Assembly (NCBI RefSeq): GCF_042660085.1
Contig: NZ_JBHSTI010000008.1
Location: 270,001-302,000, forward strand
DNA length: 32,000 nt
Direction: 5' to 3'
Source of the DNA: Longivirga aurantiaca
GTDB taxonomy: Bacteria > Actinomycetota > Actinomycetes > S36-B12 > CAIYMF01
Shown here piece by piece: positions 5,919-32,000 of this stretch. The notes under the pieces were generated by a model. That model searched no databases and had not been told where the DNA came from. It saw nothing but the letters and a program-made list of their open reading frames with translations. Made by a program: the position numbers and the translations under genes. How positions within the stretch are numbered: position 1 is the stretch's first letter; each line of letters opens with the position of its first letter.

Positions 5919-5934
5919 GCCGCGCCTACCATGG

Positions 5935-8073: not shown

Positions 8074-8080
8074 ACAGTGA
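7622..8080 (+). CDS. small subunit of the flavoprotein dehydrogenase (gluconate 2-dehydrogenase subunit-3-like), copy 1
   Basis: ORF track, 152 aa. The GTG overlaps the GMC stop (7626-7628). LTAEQRARLSALADVLIRGGAGLPSASEAEV fits the pattern of the small-subunit family. It has no twin-arginine signal. A GTGA overlap joins it to the next gene at 8077-8080. Confidence 0.6.
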   Translation: MVSVDVSVQGSVPLTAEQRARLSALADVLIRGGAGLPSASEAEVHSVWIDRVFVARPDMEVVVRGVLDVAGDAESVVAGLRASDAERFSAFAFAVAGAWLINPRVRRELGYPGPVPMRQPALPDEADAYLEDGILDVVIARGPIYRPTPDAQ

Positions 8081-15746: not shown

Positions 15747-16697
15747 GTGAGCGGGAGTGACCCAGATCTGGTTGCCGTCGGCGAGACGATGGCGACCTTC
15801 GTGCGCGCCGGCGCAGTCGATGCCTACCGGCTCGTGACGGCCGGGGCCGAGTCCAATGTCGCCGCCGGGATGGCCGTGCTGGGGTGCCGGACGCAGTGGC
15901 ACTCGCGGCTCGGGGCCGACGAGCTCGGCGCGTTCGTCGCCGACTCGCTCGCGGCGGCCGGGGTCGACGTCGTCGTCGAGCGCGACCCCGAGCGTCCTAC
16001 GGGTGCGGCGGTCAAGGAGATCGGCGACGCAGGGTCCCGGATGCGCTACTACCGCGCCGGCAGCGCGGCGAGCCGACTCGACCTGCTGGACACGCGTCCC
16101 GCTCAGGAGGCGCAGCGCCTGCACCTCACCGGGGTGACCCCGGCCCTGTCCCGCGAGAACAGCGGCGTGGTCGCGCGGCTGCTCGCCGACCGCCGCGGGG
16201 GCACCAGCTTCGACATCAACTACAGGCCGGTCCTCTGGGCCAGCGCCGAGCAGGCTGCCAGCGTCCTCATCCCGCTGGCACGATCCGCCGACGTCGTCCT
16301 CATCGGCGATGACGAGGCACGGGCGCTTCTCGGGTCCGACGACGTCGACGTGGTGGCGCGAGCGATCCTGGTGCGGCCCGACCAGGAGCTGGTGCTCAAG
16401 CGCGGGCCGTCCGAGGCCGTGCTCGCGACCGAGGACCGGCGCGTCTCCGAACCGGCTCACCGGGTCGAGGTCGTCGACGTCACCGGAGCGGGGGACGGGT
16501 TCGCGGCGGGCTACCTGACGGCTGCGGTCTGGGGCTGGCCCGCGCGTGCGAGACTCCGGCTCGGGCATTTCCTGGCCTCACGGGTCGTGGGAGTCCTGGG
16601 AGACACCGTGCCTGACATCGACCGAGAAGACCTGACCAGGCTCGCCGTTGACCTGGGGCAGACGTGGCCGAACCCGACGGAGGAGAGACGACGATGA
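15747..16697 (+). CDS. kdgK: PfkB-family sugar kinase, 2-dehydro-3-deoxygluconokinase-like
   Basis: Frame of ORF 15684..16697. GTG 15747 is preferred because it leaves room for the divergent promoter. Motifs: LVAVGETMA N-terminus and DVTGAGDGFAAGYL anion-hole/ATP motif. Confidence 0.8.
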   Translation: MSGSDPDLVAVGETMATFVRAGAVDAYRLVTAGAESNVAAGMAVLGCRTQWHSRLGADELGAFVADSLAAAGVDVVVERDPERPTGAAVKEIGDAGSRMRYYRAGSAASRLDLLDTRPAQEAQRLHLTGVTPALSRENSGVVARLLADRRGGTSFDINYRPVLWASAEQAASVLIPLARSADVVLIGDDEARALLGSDDVDVVARAILVRPDQELVLKRGPSEAVLATEDRRVSEPAHRVEVVDVTGAGDGFAAGYLTAAVWGWPARARLRLGHFLASRVVGVLGDTVPDIDREDLTRLAVDLGQTWPNPTEERRR

Positions 16698-17437
16698 GCC
16701 AGACCCTGGATCGAGCCCTGCAGATCCTTGACTACGTGGGGGAGAAGCCGCGGCGCATCGCGGAGATCGCGGAGTTCCTCAACGTCCATCACTCGACGGC
16801 GCTCCGCTTCCTGCACACGCTGCGAAACCACGGGTTCGTGCACGAGCTGCCCGACCACCGGTACCGCCTCGGCGCGGCGATGTTCCGACTGGGCTTCCAG
16901 GCGCTGGACGGGCTCGAGCTGAGGTCAGTGGCCCGACCGGCGATGGAACGCCTGAGCGCCGCGACGGGCGAGACCGTTCACCTCGGTGCGCTCGAGGACG
17001 GCGATGTCGTGTACATCGAGAAGGTCGAGTCGCAGCACCCGGTGCGCACCGTGTCCCGCATCGGTGCGATCGCCACCCTGCACTGCGCCGGAGTGTCCAA
17101 GGCCATCCTCGCGTTCCTTCCCGAGGCGGAGCGGGAGGCGTTGCTCGCCTCGCACGAGCTGGTGCGGCGGACCGACCACACCCTCACCAGCAGGGAGGCG
17201 TTGGAGGCCGATCTCGCGCTGAGCCGCGAGCGCGGTTACGTGCTGGACGACGAGGAGAACGAGCCCGGGATCCACTGCGTGTCCGCCCCCATCTTCTCGG
17301 GCGACGGGGAGGTCGCCGGCTCGATGAGCGTGTCGACGCCGATCAGCCGCATCGACCGGGACGCCCTGCTCGGCTTCGTCCCCGCGCTGCTCGACGCCAC
17401 ACGGTCCACGTCGGCGATGCTGGGCTGGAGCGGCTGA
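16694..17437 (+). CDS. IclR-family transcriptional regulator (KdgR-like)
   Basis: Frame of ORF 16664..17437. ATG 16694 forms an ATGA overlap with the kinase stop. LDRALQILDYVGEKPRRIAEIAEFLNVHHSTALRFLHTL is a winged HTH, followed by an IclR effector domain. Confidence 0.85.
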   Translation: MSQTLDRALQILDYVGEKPRRIAEIAEFLNVHHSTALRFLHTLRNHGFVHELPDHRYRLGAAMFRLGFQALDGLELRSVARPAMERLSAATGETVHLGALEDGDVVYIEKVESQHPVRTVSRIGAIATLHCAGVSKAILAFLPEAEREALLASHELVRRTDHTLTSREALEADLALSRERGYVLDDEENEPGIHCVSAPIFSGDGEVAGSMSVSTPISRIDRDALLGFVPALLDATRSTSAMLGWSG

Positions 17438-18064: not shown

Positions 18065-18094
18065 TTGACTCCTCCCGACGCATCTGGGTAATCT
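18065..18094 (+). promoter_or_regulatory. candidate housekeeping-type promoter for the etf-GMC operon
   Basis: TTGACT (18065-18070), 18 nt, TAATCT (18089-18094). The TGC boxes begin 3 nt downstream of the -10. Confidence 0.35.
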
Positions 18095-18096
18095 TC

Positions 18097-18129
18097 TGCA
18101 CTATGCGCGGAGCATCTGCATATGCTGCA
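18097..18129. promoter_or_regulatory. paired TGC-N7-GCA boxes upstream of etfB
   Basis: TGCACTATGCGCG (18097-18109, one mismatch) and TGCATATGCTGCA (18117-18129), with starts 20 bp apart. Confidence 0.45.
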
Positions 18130-18140
18130 TTGGAGGGCTC

Positions 18141-18905
18141 GTGAAGGTCCTGGTCTGTGTCACACAGACGCTCGAGGTGGCGACCTACCTCGAGTTCACC
18201 CCTGACGGGCGCGAGCTGGACCCTGCCTTCGTCACCGCTCTGGTGAACGAGGCGGATCTGTGCGCCGTCGAGGAGGCGCTAGGGCTCGTCGCGGCTGCCG
18301 GCGGCGGCGAGGTCGTCCTCGTCAGCGTCGGCGAGGACAGTGCCGAGGACGCGCTCCGCTCCGCGCTGGCGCTCGGTCCGGAGCGTGCTGTCCGGGTGTG
18401 GGGCGAGGGGGTCGTGCTCTCCGACGCCGGCTCGATCGCCGCCGCGCTGATGACCGCCGTCGAGGCCGAGTCCCCGGACCTCGTGCTCACCGGAGTCCAG
18501 TCGTCGGACACCGGCGCCCAGTCGGTCGGGCCGGCCCTCGCCGCGCGGTGGGGTGTCGCCTGCGTGCCCGTGGGCCGACGGCTGTCGGCGTCCGGATCGA
18601 CCCTCAGCCTGGAGCGCGAGTTCGAGGCCGGCCTCGTCGAGCGGGTCGAGGTGGATCTGCCCGCCCTGGTGACGGTTCAGGTCGGTGCCAACACGCCTCG
18701 CTACGGGACCTTCAAGGACAAGATGCGTGCGAAGAAGGCTGACATCGGCGTGCTCGAGCCCTCGGTGATGCCGCCGGCGCGGACGACGCTCACCCGCCTT
18801 GAGGCAGCTCCGCACGGCTCCGGCCGCTCGATCGAGCTCATCGAGGGCGGCCCGTCGGTCGTAGCCGCCCGCATCGTCGAACTGGTTCGGGAGGCCCAGT
18901 CGTGA
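18141..18905 (+). CDS. etfB: electron transfer flavoprotein, beta subunit
   Basis: ORF track, 254 aa, GGAGGG RBS. MKVLVCV... N-terminus, NEADLCAVEEAL, and DLVLTGVQSSD, typical of EtfB/FixA. Confidence 0.85.
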   Translation: MKVLVCVTQTLEVATYLEFTPDGRELDPAFVTALVNEADLCAVEEALGLVAAAGGGEVVLVSVGEDSAEDALRSALALGPERAVRVWGEGVVLSDAGSIAAALMTAVEAESPDLVLTGVQSSDTGAQSVGPALAARWGVACVPVGRRLSASGSTLSLEREFEAGLVERVEVDLPALVTVQVGANTPRYGTFKDKMRAKKADIGVLEPSVMPPARTTLTRLEAAPHGSGRSIELIEGGPSVVAARIVELVREAQS

Positions 18906-19846
18906 CCCGTTCCCTGGTCCTTGCCGAGGTGGTGGACGGCGTCCTCGCCCCCGTGACAGCGCAGGCGGTCGCGGCCGCCGTGGGCCTGGGCGGCGACATC
19001 GTCCTCGGCCTCGTCGCGCAGGACCCTGAGGCGCTCGTCCTTGCCGCTTCTCTGGCGGGTGTCACCGAGATCGTGACGGTCGCGGTCCCAGGGACGGACC
19101 GTGATCACGAGCAGGCGCTCCAGGCGGCCGTGGCCCTCGTGGCCGACGTCCGGCCCGATCAGGTGATCGCCGGATTCACCATCCGTTCCTCGTCCTACGC
19201 GGCCGCACTCGGTCACGTCCTGGACGTGGGCGTGATCACCGACGCGATCGCCCTGCGCCGTGACGACTCACAGAACCTGGTCGCGACACGGTCGGTCTAC
19301 GACGGCCGCGTCCAGGCCGAGGTGGTGCTCGACGGCTCCCGGCCGGGCGTCGTCCTGGTACGCCCGTCGTCCTGGGAGCCCGTCGAGCCCGGTGGCGCAC
19401 CGGTCGTACGGGCGCTGAGCGTCGAGATCGCCCCATCGCGTGTTCGCTCCGTCGAGCTCGTTCGGCCGTCGGGCGACGTCGACCTCGCGCGCGCCGACGT
19501 GATCCTCTCGATCGGTCGCGGAGTGGGGAGCCAGGAGAACGTGGCTGTCTTCGCGGACGTTGCGGCCAGGCTGGGTGTGGCGCTGGGTGCCTCGCGGCCG
19601 ATCGTCGATGCCGGATGGCTGCCGGCGGCGCACCAGGTCGGGCAGACCGGTTCGACCGTGAAGCCCCGCCTGTACCTGGCCTTCGGCATCTCCGGCGCGC
19701 TGCACCACCTGGCGGGTATGCAGAACAGCCGGACCATCCTGGTCGTGAACTCCGACAGGAACGCCCCGCTCTTCGGCCACGCCGATGTCGGTGCCGTCGA
19801 GGATATCCATGACGTCGTCGAGCAGCTCAACCTGCTGCTCGCCTAG
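18902..19846 (+). CDS. etfA: electron transfer flavoprotein, alpha subunit
   Basis: ORF track, 314 aa. GTGA overlap with etfB. C-terminal FAD domain: GASRPIVDAGWLP...QVGQTGSTVKPRLYLAFGISGALHHLAGM. Confidence 0.85.
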   Translation: MTRSLVLAEVVDGVLAPVTAQAVAAAVGLGGDIVLGLVAQDPEALVLAASLAGVTEIVTVAVPGTDRDHEQALQAAVALVADVRPDQVIAGFTIRSSSYAAALGHVLDVGVITDAIALRRDDSQNLVATRSVYDGRVQAEVVLDGSRPGVVLVRPSSWEPVEPGGAPVVRALSVEIAPSRVRSVELVRPSGDVDLARADVILSIGRGVGSQENVAVFADVAARLGVALGASRPIVDAGWLPAAHQVGQTGSTVKPRLYLAFGISGALHHLAGMQNSRTILVVNSDRNAPLFGHADVGAVEDIHDVVEQLNLLLA

Positions 19847-19873
19847 CCAGCGCACCAGGGTCGGGAGGATCTC

Positions 19874-21499
19874 GTGAGCACGCACGATGTGCCAGACGTA
19901 CTCATCATCGGCGCGGGAGCGTCGGGCGGTGTCGCGGCCAAGCATCTGGCCGAGGAAGGCCTCAGCGTCGTCATCCTCGAACAGGGGAACTGGGTCGACC
20001 AGAGCGACATGCCCGGGCTCCGTCCGGAGTACGAGCTCCTCGGCAGCGGTCCCTGGCATCCGAACCCCAACGTTCGTAACCGCCCCGAGGACTACCCGGT
20101 CAATCTCGACGACAGCGCGGCGGTCATCGGGATGTTCAACGGCGTCGGCGGCAGCACGGTCCTGTACGCCAGCTGCTGGTGCCGCGCCAAGCCGTCGGAC
20201 TTCCGCGTGCGCACGCTCGACGGCGTGGCCGACGACTGGCCGTTGTCGTACGAGGAGCTCGCCCCCTTCTACGCGCAGGTCGAGCTGGAGCTCGGGATCT
20301 CGGGTCAGCCAGGGAACCCGGCCTACCCGCCGGGCTACGCGCCGCCGCTCCCCTCGCTGCCCATCAACATGGCGGGACGCGTCATGGCGCAGGGCATGAA
20401 CAAGCTGGGCTGGCACTGGTGGCCCGGCTACAACTCGATCGCCTCCCGTGACCATCTGCATCAGAAGCAGTGCCAGCGCCTCGGCGTGTGCATGTACGGA
20501 TGCCCTGAGGGGGCCAAGGGCTCGAGCGACGTAGCCCTCATCCCCGATGCGCTGGCGCACGGTGCGCGGCTCGAGACCGGCGCCCGCGTCGCCCAGATCA
20601 CCCTGGACGAGAAGGGCCGTGCCAGCGGAGCCGTCTACTTCAAGGACGGCAAGGAGCACTTCCAGCCGGCCAAGGTCGTGCTCGTGGGCGCCAACGGTGT
20701 CGGGACGCCACGACTTCTGCTGATGAGCGAGTCCAACCGGTTCCCGGACGGGCTCGCGAACAGCTCGGGCCTCGTCGGCAAGCGGTTCATGACACATCCG
20801 TTCGGCACATCCGTCGGTCTCTACGAGGACGATCTCGAGGACTGGGTCGGCCCAACCGGCGAGGCGATCGAGTCGATGCAGTTCTACGAGACCGATGCCT
20901 CGCGCGGATTCGTGCGCGGCAGCAAGTGGCACATCATCCCGTCCGCGGGGCGCCCCCTCGGCATGATCAACCGCTTCACGATGGGGGAGGCGGGTGTCGC
21001 GGACGAGCCGTTCTGGGGGGAGCCCTTCACCGACCGGATGAGGTCGTCCGTCGGGCACCTCATCGAGTGGATGATCATGCCCGACGACCTGCCGGAGGAG
21101 ACGAACTTCATCTCGCTCGACCGGTCGATGTCCGACTCCGACGGTCTTCCCGCCGCCAAGGTCACCTACGTGACATCGGAGAACACGCGTCGGCTCGTCG
21201 ACTGGAACCTCCAGCGGAGCCTCGAGGCGCACGAGGCCGCCGGGGCGACGAAGGCGTGGATCACCAACCGCAACAACCCCTCGTGGCACAACATGGGCAC
21301 CGCCAAGATGGGCGACGACCGTGAGACCTCGGTCGTGGACCGTTGGGGTCGGACCCATGACGTCCCGAACCTCTACGTCATCGACGGGAGCCAGTTCCCC
21401 ACGGCGACGGGAGTCAATCCGACCGCGACGATCTGTGCGCTGGCCAAGCGGACGGCGACGTTCATCGCGAACAACCGTGACCAGGTGGTGGCGTGGTGA
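19874..21499 (+). CDS. GMC-family FAD-dependent dehydrogenase, large subunit (copy 2)
   Basis: ORF track, 541 aa, GTG start after GGGAGGA. By eye it is roughly two thirds to 70% identical in protein to copy 1 over most of its length. The last 22 codons are identical at the nucleotide level. Confidence 0.85.
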   Translation: MSTHDVPDVLIIGAGASGGVAAKHLAEEGLSVVILEQGNWVDQSDMPGLRPEYELLGSGPWHPNPNVRNRPEDYPVNLDDSAAVIGMFNGVGGSTVLYASCWCRAKPSDFRVRTLDGVADDWPLSYEELAPFYAQVELELGISGQPGNPAYPPGYAPPLPSLPINMAGRVMAQGMNKLGWHWWPGYNSIASRDHLHQKQCQRLGVCMYGCPEGAKGSSDVALIPDALAHGARLETGARVAQITLDEKGRASGAVYFKDGKEHFQPAKVVLVGANGVGTPRLLLMSESNRFPDGLANSSGLVGKRFMTHPFGTSVGLYEDDLEDWVGPTGEAIESMQFYETDASRGFVRGSKWHIIPSAGRPLGMINRFTMGEAGVADEPFWGEPFTDRMRSSVGHLIEWMIMPDDLPEETNFISLDRSMSDSDGLPAAKVTYVTSENTRRLVDWNLQRSLEAHEAAGATKAWITNRNNPSWHNMGTAKMGDDRETSVVDRWGRTHDVPNLYVIDGSQFPTATGVNPTATICALAKRTATFIANNRDQVVAW

Positions 21500-21944
21500 G
21501 CGTGGATGTGTCCGTGCAGGGTTCGGTGCCGCTCACCGCGGAGCAGCGGGCCCGGTTGTCCGCGCTGGCCGACGTCCTGATCCGCGGCGGTGCCGGTCTG
21601 CCCTCGGCCAGCGAGGCGGAGGTGCACTCGGTGTGGATCGACCGGGTGTTCGTGGCGCGCCCGGACATGGAGGTCGTGGTGCGCGGGGTGCTGGACGTGG
21701 CTGGGGATGCCGAGTCGGTCGTGGCCGGTCTGCGGGCCTCGGACGCGGAGCGGTTCTCGGCGTTCGCGTTCGCGGTCGCGGGGGCGTGGCTGATCAATCC
21801 GCGGGTGCGTCGTGAGCTGGGCTACCCGGGCCCGGTGCCGATGCGTCAGCCCGCCCTGCCCGACGAGGCCGACGCCTATCTCGAGGACGGCATCCTCGAC
21901 GTCGTCATCGCCCGAGGCCCCATCTACCGCCCCACCCCGGACGC
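21431..21944 (+). repeat. 514-bp direct repeat, copy B (partner 7560-8073)
   Basis: See copy A. Identity stops at 21944, one base before the TGA stop of small-subunit copy 2. Confidence 0.9.
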
Positions 21945-21948
21945 CTGA
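21493..21948 (+). CDS. small subunit of the flavoprotein dehydrogenase, copy 2
   Basis: ORF track, 151 aa. The protein is identical to copy 1 except that it lacks the terminal Gln. Confidence 0.6.
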   Translation: MVSVDVSVQGSVPLTAEQRARLSALADVLIRGGAGLPSASEAEVHSVWIDRVFVARPDMEVVVRGVLDVAGDAESVVAGLRASDAERFSAFAFAVAGAWLINPRVRRELGYPGPVPMRQPALPDEADAYLEDGILDVVIARGPIYRPTPDA

Positions 21949-21954
21949 GACGGC

Positions 21955-22908
21955 TTATGGGCGGGCCGGCTCATGCCAGGTCAGGAAGCGCGCGGGGTTG
22001 TCGACGGTGATCCGGCGTACCGACTCGTCGTCGAGGCCCTCGCGGCGTAGCCACGGGATGAGTCGCCACGGGATGTAGCTGTAGCCGGGCCCACCACCCC
22101 ACGACACCAGCGAGCTGCGTCGTGCCAGGTCGCCGGACAGGGTGATGTGGTCGACCAGGCCGTCCTCGACGAGGCGGAGGATCGCTTGGACTCGGGCGGA
22201 GTCCGGCTCGTACCACTCCTTCGACACGCAGTCGTAGCCGAGTGTGAACCCGTCCCGCGCCAAGGCGCGGTGCTCCGCCACGTCCAGCCTGCGGTCGAGA
22301 TGACCGAGCGTGACGCGCTGCGGATCGGCGCCGGCACGGGTGAGGACCCGGGCCTGGTCGACGGCCATCGTCCCGGCCGTCGTATGGGTGGTGATCGGCG
22401 CGCCCGTGACGACCTGCGCCCGGGCTGCTGCAGTGAGGACGCGCTCCTCGGCGGCAGTCACGGTGTCCCGGGAGCTGCCTGCCTTGATCACCCCCGCGCG
22501 TACGCCGGTGGCACCGATCCCCTCGGTGAGCTCGACCGTCATCTCCTCGACGAGCTGGTCGACCCCGCGGTCCTCGATGTCGAGAACCCCGGACCAGTAG
22601 TCGACGGACACGTGGCCGGTGGTGGCGACGACATGCACCCCGGAGGCGCGCGAGATGCGCGCGAGAGCGGCGACGTCGCGGCCGAACTCGGCGACCGTCA
22701 CCTCGACGAGGGCCCCGCCTCCGGCCGAGCGGTAGATGGCCACCTCCTCGGTCGCGCGAGCCTCGTCGTCGAGCAGCAGGTCGTCGTTGTCGCGCAGCCG
22801 AGGCGCGGGGGCGGTCATGAGGTGCTCGTGGCAGAGCGTCAGACCGAGAGCCGTCGGTGGGATGTCACCGAGCACCGTCCGTACGAATGCTTGACCCGTC
22901 ATGGTCAC
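21955..22908 (-). CDS. phosphotriesterase-homology protein (amidohydrolase superfamily, Php/YhfV-like; possible lactonase)
   Basis: ORF track, 317 aa. HxH motif in LTLCHEHL, with later metal-ligand contexts (TTHT, GHLD, LSGD). The start may be ATG 22902 if the transcript is leaderless. Confidence 0.8.
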   Translation of the reverse strand: MTMTGQAFVRTVLGDIPPTALGLTLCHEHLMTAPAPRLRDNDDLLLDDEARATEEVAIYRSAGGGALVEVTVAEFGRDVAALARISRASGVHVVATTGHVSVDYWSGVLDIEDRGVDQLVEEMTVELTEGIGATGVRAGVIKAGSSRDTVTAAEERVLTAAARAQVVTGAPITTHTTAGTMAVDQARVLTRAGADPQRVTLGHLDRRLDVAEHRALARDGFTLGYDCVSKEWYEPDSARVQAILRLVEDGLVDHITLSGDLARRSSLVSWGGGPGYSYIPWRLIPWLRREGLDDESVRRITVDNPARFLTWHEPARP

Positions 22909-22920
22909 TTATCATAACGT
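22907..22920. promoter_or_regulatory. second copy of the ACTTATCATAACGT promoter/operator core
   Basis: 14 of 14 identical to 3609-3622. It fills most of the 21-bp gap between the divergent start codons at 22908 and 22930. It carries the same overlapping -10-like hexamers (TATGAT minus, TAACGT plus). Confidence 0.5.
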
Positions 22921-22929
22921 AGTGACAAC

Positions 22930-23901
22930 ATGATGACGAGACCATCGGAGCAGGACGTGGTGCAACGGCTCTACTTCGTGGGCGTCTCCACGGCCGCCTC
23001 CGGCATCATGACCATCTTCCCCGCCTGGGCCGAGGCGCTCGGCCTCCGCGCCGAGATGCACGGCGTCGATCTCCCCGTGCAGGCCCGCCCGGACGACGTG
23101 CGCGCGGTGATCGACACCCTGGCAGTCGACCCGCAGGCAGTCGGCGCGCTCGTGACGACGCACAAGGCCGCGGTCTGGGACGCCGCCTCGGACCGCTTCT
23201 CCGAACTCGACCCCTGGGCGCAGGTGTGTCGCGAGATCTCGTGCATCGCGGTGCGCGACCGGGGTCTGATCGGCTGGGCGAAGGACCCGATCACCTCGCG
23301 CCAGGCGTACACGCACCTGCTCGGCGAGGACCCCTGGGGCGGCGGTGAGCGCGATCTGGTCTGCCTCGGCGCGGGTGGTGCCGGGCTGGCTCTGGCCGCG
23401 GCAGTCCTGGACGGCGGGCACCAGCCGCGCCGGGTGGTGCTCGCCGACCGGGACCCCGGGCGACTGACGGTCTCCCGGGAGGTGCTCGACCAGCTCGACG
23501 TTCGGGCAGAGCTCGAGCTCGTCGTCACGAGCAGCCCGGAGCAGGCCGGGGACCTGGTGTCGGCGTCCGCCGAGGGCTCCCTGGTCGTGAACGCCACGGG
23601 CATGGGCAAGGACCTGCCCGGCTCGCCGGTCGGGCCGGACGCGGTCTTCCCCCGGGGCGCGGTGGCGTGGGACATGAACTACCGAGGCGACCTGGCGTTC
23701 CTGGACATCGCGAGGGCGCAGCAGCTCGAGCGGGGTCTCGTAGTCGCCGACGGGTGGCGCTACTTCCTCCACGGCTGGACCGAGGTCATCGCCGAGCTGT
23801 TCGGCGTCGCGATGTCCCCCGACGTGTTCGCCGAGCTCGCCTCAATCGCCGGTCAGGTGTCGGGTCGGGAGGTGGGCAGTGCCGGCGTCAGCCGTGGCTG
23901 A
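22930..23901 (+). CDS. shikimate/quinate-dehydrogenase-family protein (divergent member)
   Basis: ORF track, 323 aa. VTTHKAAV resembles the NVTxPxK motif, CLGAGGAGLALAAAVL resembles the NAD(P) loop, and VNATGMG is also present. The N-terminal substrate motif is atypical. Confidence 0.6.
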   Translation: MMTRPSEQDVVQRLYFVGVSTAASGIMTIFPAWAEALGLRAEMHGVDLPVQARPDDVRAVIDTLAVDPQAVGALVTTHKAAVWDAASDRFSELDPWAQVCREISCIAVRDRGLIGWAKDPITSRQAYTHLLGEDPWGGGERDLVCLGAGGAGLALAAAVLDGGHQPRRVVLADRDPGRLTVSREVLDQLDVRAELELVVTSSPEQAGDLVSASAEGSLVVNATGMGKDLPGSPVGPDAVFPRGAVAWDMNYRGDLAFLDIARAQQLERGLVVADGWRYFLHGWTEVIAELFGVAMSPDVFAELASIAGQVSGREVGSAGVSRG

Positions 23902-24679
23902 GGGAGTCGACCCCCGCGGAGCTGCGGCTGTCGCGGACGACGTCCATCTCGATGCGCATGCGGTCGGCCCGGTGCCAGGCCAGGAAGCACTCGATGACAT
24001 CGCCCGCAGCGTTGCGGGCCACCGACTCGATGTAGAGCAGCGGGTCGCCGGGGCCGACCTCCAGAAGCTTGGTCAGCATGCCCGAGGCGGCGACCGCCTC
24101 GATGGACCGATGGCCGGTGTCGATGCGCAGGCCGAACTGGTCGGACAGGATGCGGTACAGCGACACCGTGGCGAGGTCGGCCGCGCGCAGCTGCGTCAGG
24201 ATGGCCTCGTCGTCGCGGGCGATGTAGGACTTGGTGAAGGCGACGACCTCGTCATTGACAGCCCGGAGCCGGACGATCTCGATGCAGTGCGTACCGGGAG
24301 CGGCGCCGATCAGCTCACGAGCCCGCCCCACGACCTCGACACGGTCGATCGACAGGACGCTGCTCGAGACCGAGTGCCCATGGCTGGTCATGTCCTCGAA
24401 GAAGCCGACGGTGCTCTCCATGAACTGCTCGGAGAGCTTCGGCTTCGCCACGAAGGTGCCCTTGCCGCGCATCCGCTGCAGGACTCGCTCGTTGACCAGC
24501 TCGCCGACGGCCTGCCGCACCACGGTCCGCGAGACGCCGTAGCGCGCGCACATCTCGGCCTCGGACGGCATCAGGTGGCCGGGCTCGAGGTTGTCGCGCG
24601 CGATCTCGCGCACGATCAACTGCTTGAGCTGCTCGTAGTAGGGCAGCCGGGCGTCGTGGTCGATCCCCAGGTCCGTCAC
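23888..24679 (-). CDS. GntR-family regulator, HutC subfamily (UTRA effector domain)
   Basis: ORF track, 263 aa. PYYEQLKQLIVREIARDNLEPGHLMPSEAEMCARYGVSRTVVRQAVGELVNERVLQRMRGKGTFV is a winged HTH, followed by a UTRA-like C-terminal half. Confidence 0.85.
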   Translation of the reverse strand: MTDLGIDHDARLPYYEQLKQLIVREIARDNLEPGHLMPSEAEMCARYGVSRTVVRQAVGELVNERVLQRMRGKGTFVAKPKLSEQFMESTVGFFEDMTSHGHSVSSSVLSIDRVEVVGRARELIGAAPGTHCIEIVRLRAVNDEVVAFTKSYIARDDEAILTQLRAADLATVSLYRILSDQFGLRIDTGHRSIEAVAASGMLTKLLEVGPGDPLLYIESVARNAAGDVIECFLAWHRADRMRIEMDVVRDSRSSAGVDSLSHG

Positions 24680-24700
24680 GGGGTAGAACGTAACATCCGG

Positions 24701-24709
24701 TCATGACGT
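24701..24709. promoter_or_regulatory. TCATGACGT half-site in the gntR / yhfU-like divergent region
   Basis: Its reverse complement ACGTCATGA is identical to 3619-3627, inside the palindrome at 3613-3628. Confidence 0.3.
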
Positions 24710-24779
24710 CCTGTCGTCTCCCCGGTGGCACTCGCCGACCTGATCCCACCACCGCACGTACACGAGGAAAGAAGGCCTG

Positions 24780-25184
24780 ATGGTCAAGGAACGGCTCGTT
24801 CGCGTCGTCGTCGCTGGTGTCGATGCCCCCTCCATGGCGCAGCTCGCCACGAACGCGGGCGGAGGCCGGGTGGAGGCGGCCGCGCTCGGCGACATGCAGG
24901 GCGCTCGGCTGGTCAAGAAGGGTCAGGCCGACTACTACCTCGGCACCTGCTGGTCCGGCGGCGGCGGAGCGCTGGCTGCGGCCACCGCCATCCTGGGCGC
25001 CAACCTCGTGGGGATCGTCGGAACACCCGGCATGATCGTCACGGAGGAGCGGGTGCGGACCGCGGTAGGCGAGGGCCGCATCGCCTTCGGGTTCGCCTAC
25101 GAGCAGTCGACGGCCGCGATCCCCATGATCATCAGCGAGATCCTCGCCCACCGCGATGCGCTTGGCGGAGGCACGGATGACTGA
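24780..25184 (+). CDS. DUF2620 / YhfU-like protein
   Basis: ORF track, 134 aa, AGGAAAGAAGG RBS. GQADYYLGTCWSGGGGALAAATAILG and GRIAFGF...AIPMII resemble my memory of E. coli YhfU. This needs an HMM check. Confidence 0.55.
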   Translation: MVKERLVRVVVAGVDAPSMAQLATNAGGGRVEAAALGDMQGARLVKKGQADYYLGTCWSGGGGALAAATAILGANLVGIVGTPGMIVTEERVRTAVGEGRIAFGFAYEQSTAAIPMIISEILAHRDALGGGTDD

Positions 25185-25599
25185 GTCGGCCCCCACCTCG
25201 GCCGCAGCACTCGCGGCGGTGGCCGCCGAGTTCGCCGAGAGGCTCGATCTGCTCGAGGAGAGCGGGCAGGTGACCAACCTCGCCCGCCGTCTCACCGAGC
25301 TGTGCCTCGCAGAGCTGGCGACCGACCTCGGTCTCACGCTGACCGAGGACAACGCCGCCCAGTTCGTCACCCATCTCGCCATCGCCCTCACCCGCATCAA
25401 CCGGGGCGACCCCGAGATCGCGTCGTCGGTCGTGGCGGCGGAGGAGATCGCGGACCGAACGCGCGAGCACGATGCGGTGATGCGCGTCATGCACGACGCC
25501 TCGCGCCTGCTCCAGCGCGAGGTCCCCGAGTCGGAGATCACCTTCATGACGGTCCACCTCTGCGGCTTGGTCGACGAGAAGGCAGCGTCCGGAGCGTGA
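25177..25599 (+). CDS. stand-alone PRD-like protein (YhfY-like)
   Basis: Frame of ORF 25156..25599. ATG 25177 overlaps the upstream stop by 8 nt. The protein looks all-helical. Two His residues in PRD-like contexts (FVTHLAIAL and FMTVHLCGL) lie 61 residues apart. Confidence 0.5.
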   Translation: MTESAPTSAAALAAVAAEFAERLDLLEESGQVTNLARRLTELCLAELATDLGLTLTEDNAAQFVTHLAIALTRINRGDPEIASSVVAAEEIADRTREHDAVMRVMHDASRLLQREVPESEITFMTVHLCGLVDEKAASGA

Positions 25600-26801
25600 T
25601 GAGGCGCGCGGTCATCGTGGTCATCGACGGCTTCGGCATCGGGGCGACGCCGGACGCCGGCCCAGCCGACCTCGGGATGAACACGCTGGCGCACGTCGCT
25701 GACGCCGTCGACCTCCGGCTGCCGGTGCTCGCGTCGCTGGGCCTCGGACGTCTCGTGCCCGACGCGGTCGAGCCGGTGCAGGAACCGCGTGCGGCATACG
25801 GCCGGCTCACGCCTGTGCACATCGGCGCGGACACGTACATGGGCCATCAGGAGCTCATGGGCGGTGGCCTCTCACGGGTCGAGTTCCGGCTCATGGAGGA
25901 GCTCGGCGACGACGTCGCCGCGGCCCTCCGGTCCGCAGGGCACACGGTGGAACCCCTCGTCGTCGGGCAGTCGATGCTGCTGGTGGACGGTGCCGTGGTG
26001 GTGCACGACAACATCGAGGCACGTGCGCGGCTCAACGTGAACGTGACCGCGTCACTCGACGACATCGACTTCGACGCCCTTACCGAGATCGGGTTGATCG
26101 TGCGGCGCGCGATCAACGTCTCGCGGGTGATCGTCGTCGGGAGCCGCGGATACGACGTCGACAGCATCCGCTCCCACATCGTCCATCGCGGCGACGGGCA
26201 CATCGGCGTCGACACCCCGAGCCTCGGCGTCTACAACGAGCACTACCAGGTGCGGCACCTCGGACTCGACCTGCCGATCGAGCGTCAGCTCCCGATGCGG
26301 GTCAAGGACCAGGGCGGCGATGTCGTCCTGCTCGGCAAGGCCGCCGATGTGGTGAGGTGCGAGGGGGCGACCCTGGAGAACATCGTGCCGACGGACGGGG
26401 TGTTCGATGCCGCTGTGCGGCATCTCGACGGGTTGAGCCGCGGCCTGATCGTCGCGAACGTGCAGGAGTCCGACTTGGCGGGGCACGAGCAGGATGCCGC
26501 GCGCTACGCCCGCGTCCTGGCAACCGTCGACGCCAGGCTGCAGGAGCTGCTCGACCGTCTCGGACCCGACGACCTTCTCGTGATCACCGCCGATCACGGC
26601 AACGACCCGACCTCGGGCAGCAGCAGGCACACCCGCGAGTACGTACCGGTCCTCGTCCTCGGCCAGCAGCTACGCCCGGTCGATCTCGGGATCCGGTCGT
26701 CCCTGGCTGACGTGGGGGCCACCGTCGCGGAGCTCCTCGGCACCGAGCCACTCGATTCAGGCACGTCCTTCGCCCGGGAGATCCTGTGTTCATCGATGTG
26801 A
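25599..26801 (+). CDS. phosphopentomutase-family metalloenzyme (YhfW/DeoB-like mutase)
   Basis: Frame of ORF 25302..26801. ATG 25599 shares its A with the upstream TGA. Product is 400 aa. Motifs: VIVVIDGFGIGATPDA, MGHQELMGG, SDLAGHEQD, ITADHGNDPT. Confidence 0.75.
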   Translation: MRRAVIVVIDGFGIGATPDAGPADLGMNTLAHVADAVDLRLPVLASLGLGRLVPDAVEPVQEPRAAYGRLTPVHIGADTYMGHQELMGGGLSRVEFRLMEELGDDVAAALRSAGHTVEPLVVGQSMLLVDGAVVVHDNIEARARLNVNVTASLDDIDFDALTEIGLIVRRAINVSRVIVVGSRGYDVDSIRSHIVHRGDGHIGVDTPSLGVYNEHYQVRHLGLDLPIERQLPMRVKDQGGDVVLLGKAADVVRCEGATLENIVPTDGVFDAAVRHLDGLSRGLIVANVQESDLAGHEQDAARYARVLATVDARLQELLDRLGPDDLLVITADHGNDPTSGSSRHTREYVPVLVLGQQLRPVDLGIRSSLADVGATVAELLGTEPLDSGTSFAREILCSSM

Positions 26802-27994
26802 CCCTGCGCCGCAATCCCGAGCTCGTGGGCGCCGCCGTCGACCTCCATCAGGCGGGGCGGATCCCGTCGAACTGCTACGTGGTGGATCTGGACGCCGTGT
26901 CGAGGAATGCGGCGCTGGTCGCGCGATCAGCGGCGTCGCACGGACTCACGCCGTACCAGATGACCAAGCAGTTCGGTCGCAACCCGATCGTGGCCCGGGC
27001 CGTGGCAGCGGCGGGTATCGAGAAGGTGGTGGCGGTGGACTTCGAGGAAGCGCGGCTGCTCCACAGCCACGGGCTGCGCATCGGGCATCTGGGGCACCTC
27101 GTGCAGGTCCCGCGAGACGAGGTCGGCCTGGCCCTCGACATGGAGCCGGACTTCATCACGGTCTTCGGCCTGGCCCAGGCTGCCCGGCTGAGCGCGGCGG
27201 CAGTGGAGCGGGGGCTCGTGCAGGACGTCACCCTTCGCGTGGTCGGCCCGGACGACACGTTCTACGCCGCGCAGCGCGGCGGCGTGCCGGTGCACGAGGC
27301 GGTCGAGGTGGCGACCCGGATCCGGGACCTACCCGGCGTCCGTCTGCGCGGAGTCACGAGCTTCCCCGTGGTCCTGTGGGACGAGTCCGTCGGCGCGTTC
27401 GCGCCGACAGCCAACCTCTCCACGCTGGGTGCGGTCTCGCAGGCTCTGCGGGCCGCCGGGATCGACGTGGACGTCCTCAACGCCCCGAGTGCGTGCTGCA
27501 CCGCGACGTTCGGGATGAAGGCCGCAGCCGGTGCGACCCATGTGGAGCCAGGGAGCTGCCTCACCGGCCAGACACCGCTGCACGCGGTGAGCGACGAGCC
27601 CGAGCTCCCGGCCATGATCTACGTCTCGGAGGTGTCGCACACGACTGCCGACGCCGCCTACGCGATCGCCGGCGGCCTCTACCCACGGTGCAAGTCGCGC
27701 ACCGCGCTGGTGTACGACGAGGCCGGTGCCACCCCCCTCGTCGCCCAGGTCGAGCTCGACCCGGCCGAGGCGATCGACTACTACGGCACACTGCGTACGG
27801 ACGATCCGCCATCGGTGCGGGTCGGCAGCACCGTCGTCTACGCCTTCCGGGCGCAGGTCTTCGTGAGCAGGTGCTTCGTCGCGGTGGTGAGCGGCGTACA
27901 GGGGACCCCCACCGTGGAGGGCATCTTCACCAGCACGGGATTCCGGCTCGGCCCTGACCTGCTGCCGCTGTCGAACGGGAGAACCCACCCATGA
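26786..27994 (+). CDS. alanine-racemase-fold PLP-binding protein (YhfX-like)
   Basis: ORF track, 402 aa. MF..TLRRNPEL, MTKQFGRNP (candidate PLP Lys) and GHLGHLVQVP resemble my memory of E. coli YhfX. The alternative start GTG 26798 would give a GTGA overlap. Confidence 0.7.
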   Translation: MFIDVTLRRNPELVGAAVDLHQAGRIPSNCYVVDLDAVSRNAALVARSAASHGLTPYQMTKQFGRNPIVARAVAAAGIEKVVAVDFEEARLLHSHGLRIGHLGHLVQVPRDEVGLALDMEPDFITVFGLAQAARLSAAAVERGLVQDVTLRVVGPDDTFYAAQRGGVPVHEAVEVATRIRDLPGVRLRGVTSFPVVLWDESVGAFAPTANLSTLGAVSQALRAAGIDVDVLNAPSACCTATFGMKAAAGATHVEPGSCLTGQTPLHAVSDEPELPAMIYVSEVSHTTADAAYAIAGGLYPRCKSRTALVYDEAGATPLVAQVELDPAEAIDYYGTLRTDDPPSVRVGSTVVYAFRAQVFVSRCFVAVVSGVQGTPTVEGIFTSTGFRLGPDLLPLSNGRTHP

Positions 27995-28266
27995 CCGCCA
28001 TCCGTACCGCCGTCGTCGCCGATCCCCTGGGGCTCCACGCTCGTCCCGCAGCGGAGCTCGTGGCACAGGCCCGGGCCTACGAGTCCGACCTCGTCCTCGC
28101 GTCCGGCGAGAAGACGGGGAACTGCAAGAGCCTGCTGGCGGTGCTGAAACTGGGCATCGTGGGCGGCACCGAGGTGACGGTGACGGCAACGGGTCCCGAC
28201 GAAGCCGTCGCGGTCGAGGTGCTCGCCTCGTTCCTCGAGCTGGTCCACGGAGAAGGCACATCGTGA
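27991..28266 (+). CDS. ptsH: phosphocarrier protein HPr
   Basis: ORF track, 91 aa. ATGA overlap with the previous gene. Active-site GLHARPA (His16) and the Ser47 region GNCKSLLAVLKLG. Confidence 0.85.
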   Translation: MTAIRTAVVADPLGLHARPAAELVAQARAYESDLVLASGEKTGNCKSLLAVLKLGIVGGTEVTVTATGPDEAVAVEVLASFLELVHGEGTS

Positions 28267-29948
28267 TCGTCACCGGCATCCCCGTCTCGGGAGGGATCGC
28301 TGTCGGCCGTCTCGTGGTGGTGGGCGCGCTGATGCCGACCGACGTCGACTCCGTCTCGGTCTCAGAGTCCGGAGGAAGTGCCGAAGAGCGGATGACCCGG
28401 CTCGTTGCCGCCGTCGCCGCCAGCCGCCAGGAGATCTCGTCGATCGCGGCCCAGACGCGGCAGCGCATCGGGAGCGACCCGGCTGCGATCATCGAGGCCC
28501 AGCTGCTCGTGCTCGACGACCCCGAGTGGTGGGAGCCGATTCGTGACGAGGTGCTCGGCGGGGCGGAGCCGACGACCGCGGTGCGGTCGGTGACCGAGGC
28601 CGTGGCCGAGGCCCTCGCCTCGCTCGACGATCCCTACCTTCGCGAGCGGTCGGCCGACGTGCTCGACGTCGGCCAGCGCGTTGCGGGCCATCTCGTAGGC
28701 AGGTCCCGCACCCACGCGCTGCACGGTCAGACCGGCGATGTCGTGGTCGCAGCCCACGAGCTCACTCCGACCGACACCCTCGACCTCGACCTCGACGTCG
28801 TCCGCGGCATCGTGACCGAGGCCGGGGCCCGCACCTCGCACGCCGCCATCCTGGCGCGCCAGCTGGGGATCCCCGCTGTGGTCGGAGCCGTCGGGGTGCT
28901 GGAGGCCGCTGCTCCCGGTGTGGTCGTGGTGCTCGACGGCGATGCAGGCACGTGCGAGATCGATCCGGAGCCGCACGCCCTCGACCTGGCACGGGCCAGG
29001 TCCCTGGGGCGTGCGACGCCGTCCGTCATCACCCAGTCGGTGACGACCCGGGACGGCGTGCAGGTGCACGTGCTCGCGAACGCCTCCAGCGTCTCCGACG
29101 TCGAGCGGGCCGTGGCCGAGGGTGCGGACGGGATCGGGCTGTACCGGACCGAGTTCCTGTTCATGCGGTCGGACGGGCTGCCGGACGAGGCGACCCAGGC
29201 TGAGCACTACGCGGCGGTGGCCGAGGCTGCCGGTGGGCGTCCGGTGACCTTCCGGACCCTCGACGTCGGCGGCGACAAGCCGGTTCCCGGGCTCAAGATG
29301 GACCCCGAGGAGAACCCGTTCCTCGGAGTTCGCGGCATTCGCCTGACCCTGGCGAACCGTCCGGTGTTCGACGCGCAGCTGCGCGCGCTCGCGCGGACCT
29401 CCGATGCTTTCCCGGGCGTGTCGGTGATGGTTCCGATGGTCTCGGGGCTCGAGGAGCTCGACGACGTGCGCCGCGTCCTGCAGGACGTGGCGCCTCGGGT
29501 CGCGTTCCGCCTCGGCGCCATGGTCGAGGTGCCGAGTGCCGCGCTGCTGGTCGATGCCCTGGCGCGGGAGGTCGACTTCCTCTCGGTCGGTACCAACGAC
29601 CTCACCGCCTACCTGCTGGCGGCGGACCGCGGCAATCGCCACCTGCACGGGCTGTACTCGGAGTTCCATCCGGCCGTCCTTCGCGCGCTGCATCTCATCC
29701 GCGACGGCGCGAAGGAGACTCCCGTCAGCGTCTGCGGCGAGCTCGCAGGTGACCCGCGGGCTACGGGCCTGCTCATCGGCCTGGGGTATCGGCAGCTGTC
29801 CGTGTCAGGGCCGCTCGTGCCGGCTGTGAAGGAGCGGATCCGCACGATCGACACGGCGGCCGCCGAACGGGCGGCCGAGGAGCTGCTGAGAGCGCGCCGC
29901 CATCGCGATGTCGACGCGATCCTGGAGTCGCGCCCGTTCGAGGCTTGA
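28263..29948 (+). CDS. ptsI: PEP-protein phosphotransferase, PTS Enzyme I
   Basis: ORF track, 561 aa. GTGA overlap with ptsH. Motifs: GARTSHAAILARQLGIPAVVG (phospho-His), GIGLYRTEFLF, SVGTNDLTAY, and CGELAGDP in the C-terminal PEP-binding domain. Confidence 0.9.
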   Translation: MIVTGIPVSGGIAVGRLVVVGALMPTDVDSVSVSESGGSAEERMTRLVAAVAASRQEISSIAAQTRQRIGSDPAAIIEAQLLVLDDPEWWEPIRDEVLGGAEPTTAVRSVTEAVAEALASLDDPYLRERSADVLDVGQRVAGHLVGRSRTHALHGQTGDVVVAAHELTPTDTLDLDLDVVRGIVTEAGARTSHAAILARQLGIPAVVGAVGVLEAAAPGVVVVLDGDAGTCEIDPEPHALDLARARSLGRATPSVITQSVTTRDGVQVHVLANASSVSDVERAVAEGADGIGLYRTEFLFMRSDGLPDEATQAEHYAAVAEAAGGRPVTFRTLDVGGDKPVPGLKMDPEENPFLGVRGIRLTLANRPVFDAQLRALARTSDAFPGVSVMVPMVSGLEELDDVRRVLQDVAPRVAFRLGAMVEVPSAALLVDALAREVDFLSVGTNDLTAYLLAADRGNRHLHGLYSEFHPAVLRALHLIRDGAKETPVSVCGELAGDPRATGLLIGLGYRQLSVSGPLVPAVKERIRTIDTAAAERAAEELLRARRHRDVDAILESRPFEA

Positions 29949-29974
29949 GCGCGCCGAGGACGGCGGCGCCGCCC

Positions 29975-30643
29975 TCAGCCTGGCGGCCGAGGGCGGACGT
30001 CCAGGTTGGCCAGCGAGCCCGTCCGAAGGACGCCCGAGGGGAACGTCTGGCTCAGCGTCCACTCGCTGGGTATCACCACGGTTGTCAGGCCCGCCGCGAC
30101 CGAGGCCTGCGCACCGGTGGCGGAGTCCTCCACCCCGACGGCGGCGCTCGGGCTCACGCCCAGACGGCGAAGTGCGGTGAGGTAGACGTCCGGCGCGGGC
30201 TTGGGGGCCGGACCGGCCGGACCTCCCCGCCCGACGACAGCACCGACGGCTGGCAGCAGGCCGAGCGCCTCGACGGCACGGGTGACCACCGAGAGATGAC
30301 TGGACGACGCGACCCCGACGGCGATGCCCCGGGCGGCCGCCCGGCGCACGAAGTCGACGGCGCCAGGCATGGGCGTGGGATCCGCGTAGAACCGAGCCAG
30401 CCCGTCCTCGCGGCGGCGCAGTAGGTCTGTGACGGCCACGGCCATGCCGTAGTGGGCGACGAGTGCAGCGTAGAGACGGCTCGCGGGGCGGCCGACGTGC
30501 AGGGCGAACAGCTCACGGTCGAGGTGCGCCCCCTCGTCGGCAAGAATCCCTCGGGCGACGTCGAACGCAGCAGTCTCGCTGTCGACGAGGAGGCCGTCGA
30601 GGTCGAGCACGACTGCGTCCGCCTCCAGCCCGAGCGTCGTCAT
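29975..30643 (-). CDS. HAD-superfamily hydrolase (beta-phosphoglucomutase/phosphatase-like)
   Basis: ORF track, 222 aa. Motifs: VVLDLDGLLVDSE (DxDG), VASSS, and VGVEDSATG. Confidence 0.75.
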   Translation of the reverse strand: MTTLGLEADAVVLDLDGLLVDSETAAFDVARGILADEGAHLDRELFALHVGRPASRLYAALVAHYGMAVAVTDLLRRREDGLARFYADPTPMPGAVDFVRRAAARGIAVGVASSSHLSVVTRAVEALGLLPAVGAVVGRGGPAGPAPKPAPDVYLTALRRLGVSPSAAVGVEDSATGAQASVAAGLTTVVIPSEWTLSQTFPSGVLRTGSLANLDVRPRPPG

Positions 30644-31584: not shown

Positions 31585-32000
31585 GAGGCCACGTATCGCG
31601 GATTGGGCCGGACCTCGGGGCCCTCCTCCCCTTCGACGACGATCACCGGGAACCCGCGCTCGGCGATCGTCGCGTAGTCGTACCCGGCATCGCCGATGTA
31701 GACGGCGTAGAAGACAAGGGGCGTGGTCCCGGTGTTCACCGAGCGATGCGCCCAGTGGCCGGGCACGTAGTTGGCGATGCCTGGGCGCATCTCCTTCGTG
31801 ACGGTCCTGCCGTCCTCGAGGGCCATGACGAGCAGCCCCTCTCCCGACAACGTCAGGTAGATCTCGGCGCGATCCCGGATGGCGTGGAAGTGCCCCTTCG
31901 TGAAGAAGTACTCGTCGCCGACCTTGCCCGGCGCCAGGACCGTGGTCGACGAGAGCAGGTTGTTCCCCGTCGGGGGCACGCGGACCTCGTGCACGGTATA
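31581..32000 (-). CDS. cupin-type glucose-6-phosphate isomerase-like protein, C-terminal part (gene probably continues past the right edge)
   Basis: ORF 31581..31994. TKGHFH...RAEIY...VPGHWAHRSVNTG...DAGYDYATIAERGF matches the TxGHxH / PxxWAHR cupin PGI signature known from archaeal cPGI. The frame stays open to the window end. Confidence 0.6.
   Translation of the reverse strand, partial: YTVHEVRVPPTGNNLLSSTTVLAPGKVGDEYFFTKGHFHAIRDRAEIYLTLSGEGLLVMALEDGRTVTKEMRPGIANYVPGHWAHRSVNTGTTPLVFYAVYIGDAGYDYATIAERGFPVIVVEGEEGPEVRPNPRYVAS

Follow-up and report, generated by a model that had tools for sequence, protein, structure and literature searches.

An operon joining a signal-less, predicted FAD/3Fe-4S GMC dehydrogenase to a candidate dedicated electron transfer flavoprotein in Longivirga aurantiaca

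Introduction

Gluconate 2-dehydrogenase, sorbitol dehydrogenase and fructose dehydrogenase types of the GMC family are periplasm-facing enzymes of three subunits, in which the small subunit carries the twin-arginine translocation (Tat) signal. Members of this family with flavin adenine dinucleotide (FAD) and a 3Fe-4S cluster serve in glucose and fructose biosensors as direct-electron-transfer enzymes and, to our knowledge, every one characterised so far is a complex of three subunits, including a cytochrome c, that resides in the periplasm. A locus of Longivirga aurantiaca raises the question of where such an enzyme delivers its electrons when it has neither export signal nor cytochrome, as here the genes for a GMC dehydrogenase (GMC2) and its small partner (small2) directly follow those for an electron transfer flavoprotein (ETF), a cytoplasmic protein. 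The locus lies in the stretch C8:270001-302000 of the assembly (3.67 Mb, 96% complete), referred to below as the window (32,000 nucleotides, G+C ~70%); positions given without a contig name are those of the window.

We consider it likely from the sequence evidence that electrons run from the substrate through FAD and a 3Fe-4S cluster to the ETF and from there through the membrane protein EtfD to menaquinone, the dehydrogenase and the ETF both being cytoplasmic. The operon would thereby join two known systems, the catalytic half known from Burkholderia cepacia FAD-glucose dehydrogenase (BcGDH) and Gluconobacter fructose dehydrogenase (FDH), and the acceptor logic of trimethylamine dehydrogenase (TMADH) with its ETF. 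The new element is the ETF partnership of a signal-less Fe-S GMC enzyme; full-text literature searches returned no description of a GMC enzyme paired with or using an ETF.

Organization of the etfBA-GMC2-small operon

The genes etfB, etfA, GMC2 and small2 (Table 1) form one tightly and translationally coupled operon, and the frames of all four were backed by codon-position G+C. The layout described in an earlier reading of the sequence alone (the sequence-only reading) was recovered in every detail: etfB and etfA overlap at GTGA (18902-18905), a 27-bp spacer with GGGAGGA separates etfA from GMC2, and GMC2 and small2 overlap by 7 nt. The second copy that it had reported, GMC1 with small1, was likewise present at its place, 13.9 kb upstream of the GMC2-small2 unit.

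Table 1. Positions of the operon, its second copy, putative control sites and related genes elsewhere in the genome
Feature	Position	Strand	Description and evidence
etfB	18141-18905	+	ETF beta (small) subunit, 254 aa; Pfam ETF 1.1e-30
etfA	18902-19846	+	ETF alpha (FAD-binding) subunit, 314 aa; Pfam ETF and ETF_alpha
GMC2	19874-21499	+	Predicted FAD/3Fe-4S GMC-family dehydrogenase catalytic subunit, 541 aa; Pfam GMC_oxred_N and GMC_oxred_C
small2	21493-21948	+	Helical accessory subunit, 151 aa, Tat-less, Cys-free; remote PF13618 relative
GMC1	6003-7628	+	Paralogous predicted FAD/3Fe-4S GMC catalytic subunit; ATG at 6003 after AGGGAG
small1	7622-8080	+	Second small-subunit copy; match to small2
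IclR-family regulator	16664-17437	+	Pfam HTH_IclR and IclR_C
Promoter-like site of etfBA-GMC2-small	TTGACT 18065-18070, 18-nt spacer, TAATCT 18089-18094	+	Read by eye
Operator-like box pair before etfB, 20 bp apart	TGCACTATGCGCG 18097-18109 (imperfect); TGCATATGCTGCA 18117-18129 (perfect TGCA-N5-TGCA)	+	Pattern search
Promoter-like site upstream of GMC1	TTGACG 5904-5909, TACCAT 5927-5932	+	Layout as before etfB
Operator-like box pair upstream of GMC1	5935-5947, 5955-5967	+	Same 20-bp phase as before etfB
Second ETF pair	C8:311382		After TMADH/histamine-dehydrogenase-type gene
Housekeeping ETF pair	C8:791902		
EtfD orthologue	C2:14152-16581	-	809 aa, 4Fe-4S dicluster and two CCG domains; match to M. 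smegmatis EtfD (9ojn)

The catalytic subunits and their predicted cofactors

GMC2 (GMC_oxred_N 1.7e-19, GMC_oxred_C 2.4e-25; FAD-binding GxGxxG read as GAGASG at residues 12-17) is assigned by its sequence to the FAD/3Fe-4S clade of GMC enzymes, that of the BcGDH alpha subunit and the FDH large subunit. Its closest solved relative was the FDH large subunit (7w2j family, E ~1e-62), followed by the BcGDH alpha subunit (6a2u, 1e-57), both matched over the full length, and the remaining solved GMC enzymes scored 1e-11 or worse. The likeness to BcGDH, a gamma-alpha-beta complex (6a2u, 8grj), and to Gluconobacter FDH (7w2j, 8jej) extends to the active site and the cluster. The catalytic His (WHNMG) is kept, the stretch QCQRLGVCMYGC aligned to the cysteine cluster of FDH, and its Cys200, Cys206 and Cys210 (C-x5-C-x3-C) were invariant in all 44 GMC sequences collected beside small-subunit homologues. 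In BcGDH, Cys212, Cys218 and Cys222 bind a surface 3Fe-4S cluster that receives electrons from FAD and passes them to the cytochrome subunit (PMC6719666), and the motif points to a 3Fe-4S cluster in GMC2 as well.

GMC1 shares 67% identity with GMC2, and both depart from BcGDH and FDH at the flavin. The His that attaches FAD covalently (His105 in BcGDH) is replaced by Leu97 in GMC2 and by Tyr in GMC1, His being found only in a few deep-branching members of the collected set, so that FAD is probably bound non-covalently in both enzymes. Besides, Cys213 of BcGDH is disulfide-bonded to the gamma subunit (PMC6719666); its position is occupied by Gln in GMC2 and small2 is free of Cys, replacements that appear to fit a reducing cytoplasm.

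Predicted location and the missing cytochrome c

Neither GMC1 nor GMC2 showed a signal or a membrane segment in its sequence, and no twin-arginine motif was seen in GMC2. The small subunit, which begins with MVSVDVSVQGSVPL, had been described as lacking a twin-arginine motif and a hydrophobic signal, and this was borne out and extended to its family, as a Tat signal or hydrophobic N-terminal region was seen in none of the 33 N-termini examined and no transmembrane features were found. Nor does the upstream sequence leave space for an overlooked signal on small2, because only four codons are open between the preceding stop and its start.

The lack of a cytochrome c in the window was also confirmed, with no CxxCH motif in any of its 31 predicted proteins. 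The only c-type cytochrome in the assembly was a dihaem ORF (open reading frame) of 272 aa at C8:1914490-1915005, 1.6 Mb away, which would have the size and type expected of an actinobacterial bc1 subunit. A tri-haem cytochrome c was encoded neither with the operon nor elsewhere in the assembly, and no cytochrome c gene was found beside the homologous GMC-small loci examined. As signal, membrane segment and CxxCH are all absent, GMC2 and its small subunit are predicted to be cytoplasmic and cytochrome-free, unlike the periplasmic BcGDH and FDH with their tri-haem cytochrome c subunit, in whose place an ETF is encoded. The proposal of a cytoplasmic two-subunit variant is supported by the same absences among the homologues. 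The operon enzyme has no Tat signal, no cytochrome c subunit and no His for covalent FAD, and on these grounds it falls outside the three-subunit periplasmic family.

The small subunit

As in BcGDH and FDH, a small helical partner of ~150 aa is encoded beside the catalytic gene. The homologues of small2 numbered 247, all of ~145-160 aa and nearly all annotated as hypothetical, and mean column identity across 33 diverse members was 58%. The AlphaFold model of small2 reached a predicted local distance difference test score (pLDDT) of 85.5 overall and above 93 for residues 11-110; the last 40 residues were modelled with low confidence and probably fold on a partner.

The subunit-3 family (PF13618), to which the sequence-only reading had linked this ORF, was reached at a distance. 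Pfam gave no match for small2 even at E<=10, NCBIfam gave none, a six-frame search of the whole genome for PF13618 returned nothing, and weak direct PF13618 matches were obtained for 4 of the 33 family members (best E 0.009). A profile of these 33 members was then compared by hhalign with PF13618 domains from 15-20 Actinomycetota genomes, giving a probability of 94% (E 1e-7 to 2e-7) over template columns 1-135 of 135. In both families an N-terminal helix leads into PGG..P.AS, and GyPG is found towards the C-terminus. The proposed link is thus upheld, at a distance, and small2 is best assigned from these profiles to the subunit-3 superfamily as a shortened, remote member scoring under the curated Pfam cut-off, unlike BcGDH and FDH in being Tat-less and only remotely related to PF13618.

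An unrelated conserved hypothetical protein with no function as a subunit, which would leave GMC2 to work alone, agrees with the missing Pfam match and with the failure to reach solved small subunits by either sequence or fold, as the small2 sequence and the family profile gave only chance matches to solved structures and missed the gamma and FdhS chains. A bona fide PF13618 profile, used as control, likewise misses the solved gamma and small chains (6a2u chain A, 7w2j small chain), which makes the failed structure searches of the small family uninformative. Bcl-2-type helical matches of the model in Foldseek had E >3 and were rejected as chance. Besides the whole-domain profile match, the small ORF adjoins, and usually overlaps, a GMC gene of the same clade in every locus with a complete enough flank, and its two copies in the window appear to be kept identical by gene conversion. 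We therefore regard an unrelated ORF as highly improbable and retain small2 as a probable subunit of the enzyme.

The two copies, small1 and small2, are identical at 151 of 151 aligned residues. At the DNA level, the tracts 7557-8073 and 21428-21944 differ by 2 mismatches in 517 bp, a length that takes in almost all of the small gene together with the final ~70 nt of the GMC gene, while the rest of the GMC genes share ~70% DNA identity. This near-identity indicates, as read from the sequence, gene conversion between both units. Contigs of several other assemblies end inside the small gene (loci L048, L049, L052, L054, L055 and L060-L064), so that the repeat recurs in other genomes. In other Actinomycetota (L079, L081, L087), frames of 630-660 aa start with a Tat-less PF13618 domain with the PGG-GLPSA-type motif that small2 also carries; in these frames the small subunit appears to be naturally fused to a larger protein, presumably a GMC enzyme. 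PF13618 proteins of ~200 aa (L073, L074, L076, L080) are Tat-less as well.

A dedicated ETF lineage linked to GMC-small pairs

Among solved structures, both ETF subunits of the window were most similar to the ETF of Methylophilus methylotrophus W3A1. EtfB matched its beta chain 1o94_C over the full length at 6.8e-35 (next match 1.8e-23), and EtfA, also aligned over its full length, matched its alpha chain in 3clu_D (1.6e-53) and 1o94_D (1.9e-53); the human and Paracoccus ETFs, like most bifurcating ones, reached 1e-37 to 1e-39, and 5ow0 and 4kpu reached 1e-29 to 1e-30. For EtfB, the bifurcating ETFs scored far below those of W3A1, human and Paracoccus. All NCBIfam equivalog models stayed below their cut-offs for the window ETF. 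The recognition-loop motif PRYGTF is present in EtfB; its anchor Phe191 (Leu194 in W3A1) was considered as a specificity marker and rejected, since housekeeping actinobacterial ETFs share the Phe. From these matches, the window ETF is predicted to be of the non-bifurcating type.

This assignment bears on a reverse flow, in which reduced ETF, or an ETF complex that uses NADH in a bifurcating or confurcating manner, would feed the GMC enzyme as a reductase. Some ETFs do form bifurcating complexes with flavoprotein dehydrogenases, Ldh-EtfAB reportedly being an example. As the bifurcating ETFs were much weaker matches than the non-bifurcating ETF of W3A1, the operon holds no ferredoxin or NADH-linked partner, and the organism encodes EtfD and a respiratory cytochrome, we judge such a reversal very improbable.

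To place the ETF genes in context, 56 loci with small-subunit homologues were taken with 10-kb flanks and the window genes were mapped on each. The order etfB-etfA-GMC-small was found in Nocardioides zhouii, N. aquiterrae, Nocardioides sp. PD653-B2, an uncultured Actinomycetota metagenome-assembled genome (MAG), Planosporangium flavigriseum and a Lichenihabitans MAG; the order GMC-small-etfB-etfA in four Gammaproteobacteria (Elongatibacter, Wenzhouxiangellaceae, Lysobacterales and Woeseiaceae); and the order small-etfB-etfA-Ldh2 in Arthrobacter globiformis. A Reyranellaceae MAG has the ETF near GMC-small in a divergent arrangement. The linkage of ETF with GMC-small thus spans three gene orders across Actinomycetota, Alpha- and Gammaproteobacteria, and in the GMC tree the ETF-linked members are the GMC2 clade, its sister GMC1 clade and a gammaproteobacterial clade. 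All GMC-linked EtfA sequences formed one clade (support 0.93) apart from the two other ETFs of the genome, to whose EtfA the operon EtfA is 40-42% identical. Since the pairing recurs in three bacterial lineages, the ETF probably replaces the cytochrome c.

With the operon ETF, the housekeeping pair and the pair behind a TMADH-type gene, the genome holds three ETF systems. The last of these lies at C8:309285-313078, ~7 kb past the window end and downstream of an ABC transporter and an SDR gene, where etfB-etfA come directly after a 696-aa gene with Oxidored_FMN and Pyr_redox_2 domains, an architecture shared by trimethylamine/histamine dehydrogenase and 2,4-dienoyl-CoA reductase. In a Solirubrobacterales MAG (L103:6606-12786), etfB and etfA stand in one compact operon between a dehydrogenase gene of TMADH architecture and the gene of an EtfD-like Fe-S protein of the membrane, with CCG, Fer4 and nitrate-reductase-gamma-like domains; this is a complete dehydrogenase-to-quinone module in a single locus.

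The W3A1 ETF is the dedicated acceptor of TMADH and takes its electrons from the 4Fe-4S cluster of that enzyme; the two proteins were co-crystallised in PDB entry 1o94. The ETF of the Solirubrobacterales MAG was basal to the GMC-linked ETF clade. As the nearest solved ETF is that of W3A1 and the basal member lies in a TMADH-like operon, this ETF lineage is associated with dehydrogenases that present an Fe-S cluster. The L. aurantiaca operon is like the TMADH-ETF pair of W3A1 (1o94-1o97) in having a dedicated ETF as the predicted single-electron acceptor from an Fe-S flavoprotein dehydrogenase, and unlike it in its donor, TMADH being a TIM barrel with flavin mononucleotide and 4Fe-4S, while the donor here would have a GMC fold, FAD, 3Fe-4S and a small subunit. 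It is a parallel to TMADH-ETF and not the same system, because a TMADH-like gene is encoded separately in the genome, next to a different ETF pair. The proposal, made from the sequence alone, that the ETF is the acceptor has strong support from the linkage in three orders, the dedicated clade and the nearest structure. In our estimate, GMC2 is likely to pass its electrons to this ETF in the cell, and GMC1 probably does so too.

EtfD and the proposed route to menaquinone

An ETF:quinone oxidoreductase (ETF-QO) gene had been found missing from the window, correctly, and a search of the genome for etfD or fixC had been suggested. The canonical domain Fer4_ETF_QO was absent from the genome, and the search recovered an EtfD orthologue on contig C2, which matched EtfD of Mycobacterium smegmatis (9ojn) at E 2.6e-286. 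The M. smegmatis protein wires ETF to menaquinone (PMC13083937). As the orthologue is present and the ETF-QO domain absent, reoxidation of the ETF is expected to follow the EtfD route, and EtfD is likely, going by its similarity, to be the common outlet of all three ETFs to menaquinone. The genome resembles the mycobacterial ETF-EtfD route (9ojn; PMC13083937) in its close EtfD orthologue and the lack of a canonical ETF-QO domain. It differs in that the mycobacterial route serves acyl-CoA dehydrogenases via a housekeeping ETF, whereas here a second, dedicated ETF would feed EtfD from a GMC enzyme.

From these sequence data, which establish the gene content, the homologies, the motifs, the missing export signals and the conserved linkage, we infer the cofactor content, the direction and route of electron flow, the sharing of the ETF and the class of substrate. 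In the soluble cytoplasmic system so proposed, GMC2, with its FAD and surface 3Fe-4S cluster, would oxidise a hydroxyl of a sugar-like compound handled by the surrounding gene island, and the small Tat-less subunit would stabilise GMC2. FAD would give up its electrons one by one to the 3Fe-4S cluster, from which they would reach the FAD of the ETF encoded alongside. The ETF would stand in for the tri-haem cytochrome c that serves the periplasmic relatives as membrane subunit. The membrane protein EtfD, encoded elsewhere, would reoxidise the ETF and reduce menaquinone. GMC1, with its identical small subunit, is probably co-regulated and would most likely use the same ETF.

Putative control sites and probable sharing of the ETF with GMC1

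The two units appear to be controlled alike. A consensus promoter and terminator scan of the window returned nothing; the sites of Table 1 were read by eye and by pattern search. The gap before etfB is 89 bp, with the perfect box ending 12 nt ahead of the start codon, and the box motif occurs 21 times in the window against 7.1 expected. The IclR-family regulator is the likely repressor acting on the box pairs. In Planosporangium flavigriseum and Lichenihabitans, one etfBA pair stands ahead of both GMC genes in a single array. The suggestion that GMC1, having no ETF of its own, shares that of the operon is supported by the shared promoter and operator layout and by these compact loci with one etfBA, which together favour one ETF for both GMC enzymes.

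Other acceptors and other clients of the ETF

Several observations weigh against the ETF as the acceptor of these enzymes. GMC1 lies ~10 kb from the ETF genes. Within 10 kb, ETF genes were absent from the loci of the Micromonospora/Sphaerisporangium/Blastococcus clade and from the deep branches of Solirubrobacterales, Planctomycetota and Gaiellaceae, which implies that this type of enzyme can work with another acceptor. The ETF pairing is therefore not universal in the GMC-small family, more distant clades being without it. The island also holds a CoA-activation operon with an AMP ligase, a MaoC hydratase and an FlK thioesterase, and an AMP ligase gene is found near the gammaproteobacterial GMC-small-etfBA loci too; the ETF may have another, unrecognised client. 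Apart from these, a Foldseek comparison of the small2 model (pLDDT 85) with the PDB gave no match at E<=0.001.

The ETF-less loci bear most directly on the alternative that GMC2 with its small subunit, soluble or membrane-associated, reduces menaquinone or O2 directly and that the ETF is dispensable or an auxiliary sink. Related GMC-small pairs of other clades have neither a dedicated ETF nor a visible acceptor gene nearby, and many GMC enzymes are oxidases or quinone reductases. A dedicated ETF lineage which co-occurs only with these GMC clades would, however, be hard to maintain if it were dispensable, the genomes of Micromonospora, Planosporangium 12N6 and Sphaerisporangium with ETF-less GMC-small loci have a housekeeping-type ETF only, and no membrane segment is seen in GMC2 or the small subunit; direct reduction thus appears unlikely to us.

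The CoA-activation genes bear on a different alternative, that the ETF serves another dehydrogenase of the island, for example in a CoA-thioester branch, and stands beside GMC2 through co-regulation, GMC2 and its small subunit using some other acceptor. Acyl-CoA dehydrogenases are the classical clients of ETF, and the AMP-dependent ligase, the MaoC hydratase and the FlK-type thioesterase would suit such a branch. Against it, the 31 window proteins included no recognised acyl-CoA dehydrogenase and no further flavoprotein dehydrogenase, a housekeeping ETF is encoded separately in the genome, and it is only GMC-small that always adjoins this ETF clade across the three gene orders. Another client in the island is accordingly an unlikely reason for the presence of the ETF, and transfer from GMC2 to the ETF remains the reading we prefer.

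The surrounding catabolic island

The whole island of ~30 kb is syntenic in Nocardioides and related MAGs. It comprises genes for a solute-binding protein, an SDR and a YhfT-type transporter; GMC1-small, Ldh_2, an enolase-superfamily enzyme (dehydratase) and a HAD hydrolase; the CoA-activation operon, of six genes, a PfkB kinase, the IclR regulator and two KDPG-type aldolases; etfBA-GMC2-small and a Php-type amidohydrolase; and yhfU/Y/W/X-like genes with ptsH-ptsI. The KDPG aldolases, PfkB kinase, enolase-superfamily dehydratase, Ldh_2, Php-type amidohydrolase and yhfT/U/W/X/Y with ptsHI suggest that the island handles a sugar-acid, sugar-lactone or amino-sugar-like compound.

Behind the operon, the stretch 21955-31677 encodes the Php-type amidohydrolase, an unassigned 323-aa ORF, a GntR regulator, a DUF2620 (YhfU-like) protein, a PRD protein, a YhfW-like metalloenzyme and a YhfX-like pyridoxal phosphate enzyme, together with HPr and Enzyme I. 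It lacks a gene for Enzyme II and resembles the uncharacterised yhf cluster of E. coli. Full-text literature searches returned no description of the function of a yhf-type island. The same high-G+C actinobacterial island was also carried by two contigs of a MAG labelled Bifidobacterium breve, CALQEM020000016.1 and CALQEM020000079.1 (L048 and L049), with 77-93% protein identity to the window for most genes and 98% for the small-gene tail; its presence there looks like a binning or labelling error.

Implications

Taken as a whole, and with somewhat less confidence than for the electron route itself, we lean towards the view that these loci represent an undescribed class of respiratory dehydrogenase, in which a cytoplasmic FAD/3Fe-4S GMC enzyme reduces a dedicated ETF by way of its surface Fe-S cluster, and through the ETF supplies EtfD and menaquinone. 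The small subunit of such a class would be purely structural or would shield the cluster, possibly within the ETF docking site, and the module would have spread together with its ETF horizontally between Actinomycetota and Proteobacteria.

If true, this would give GMC enzymes a new physiological acceptor, and beside TMADH it would be a second, unrelated case of electron transfer from an Fe-S cluster to an ETF. The small subunit, regarded as the hitch-hiker of Tat export, would have a role apart from it, and export would not be its primary role. Signal-less Fe-S GMC enzymes are widespread, and for one subfamily at least the identity of the acceptor can now be put to a direct test; the reading would tie an actinobacterial catabolic island of ~30 kb, including its orphan yhf-type genes, to the respiratory chain.

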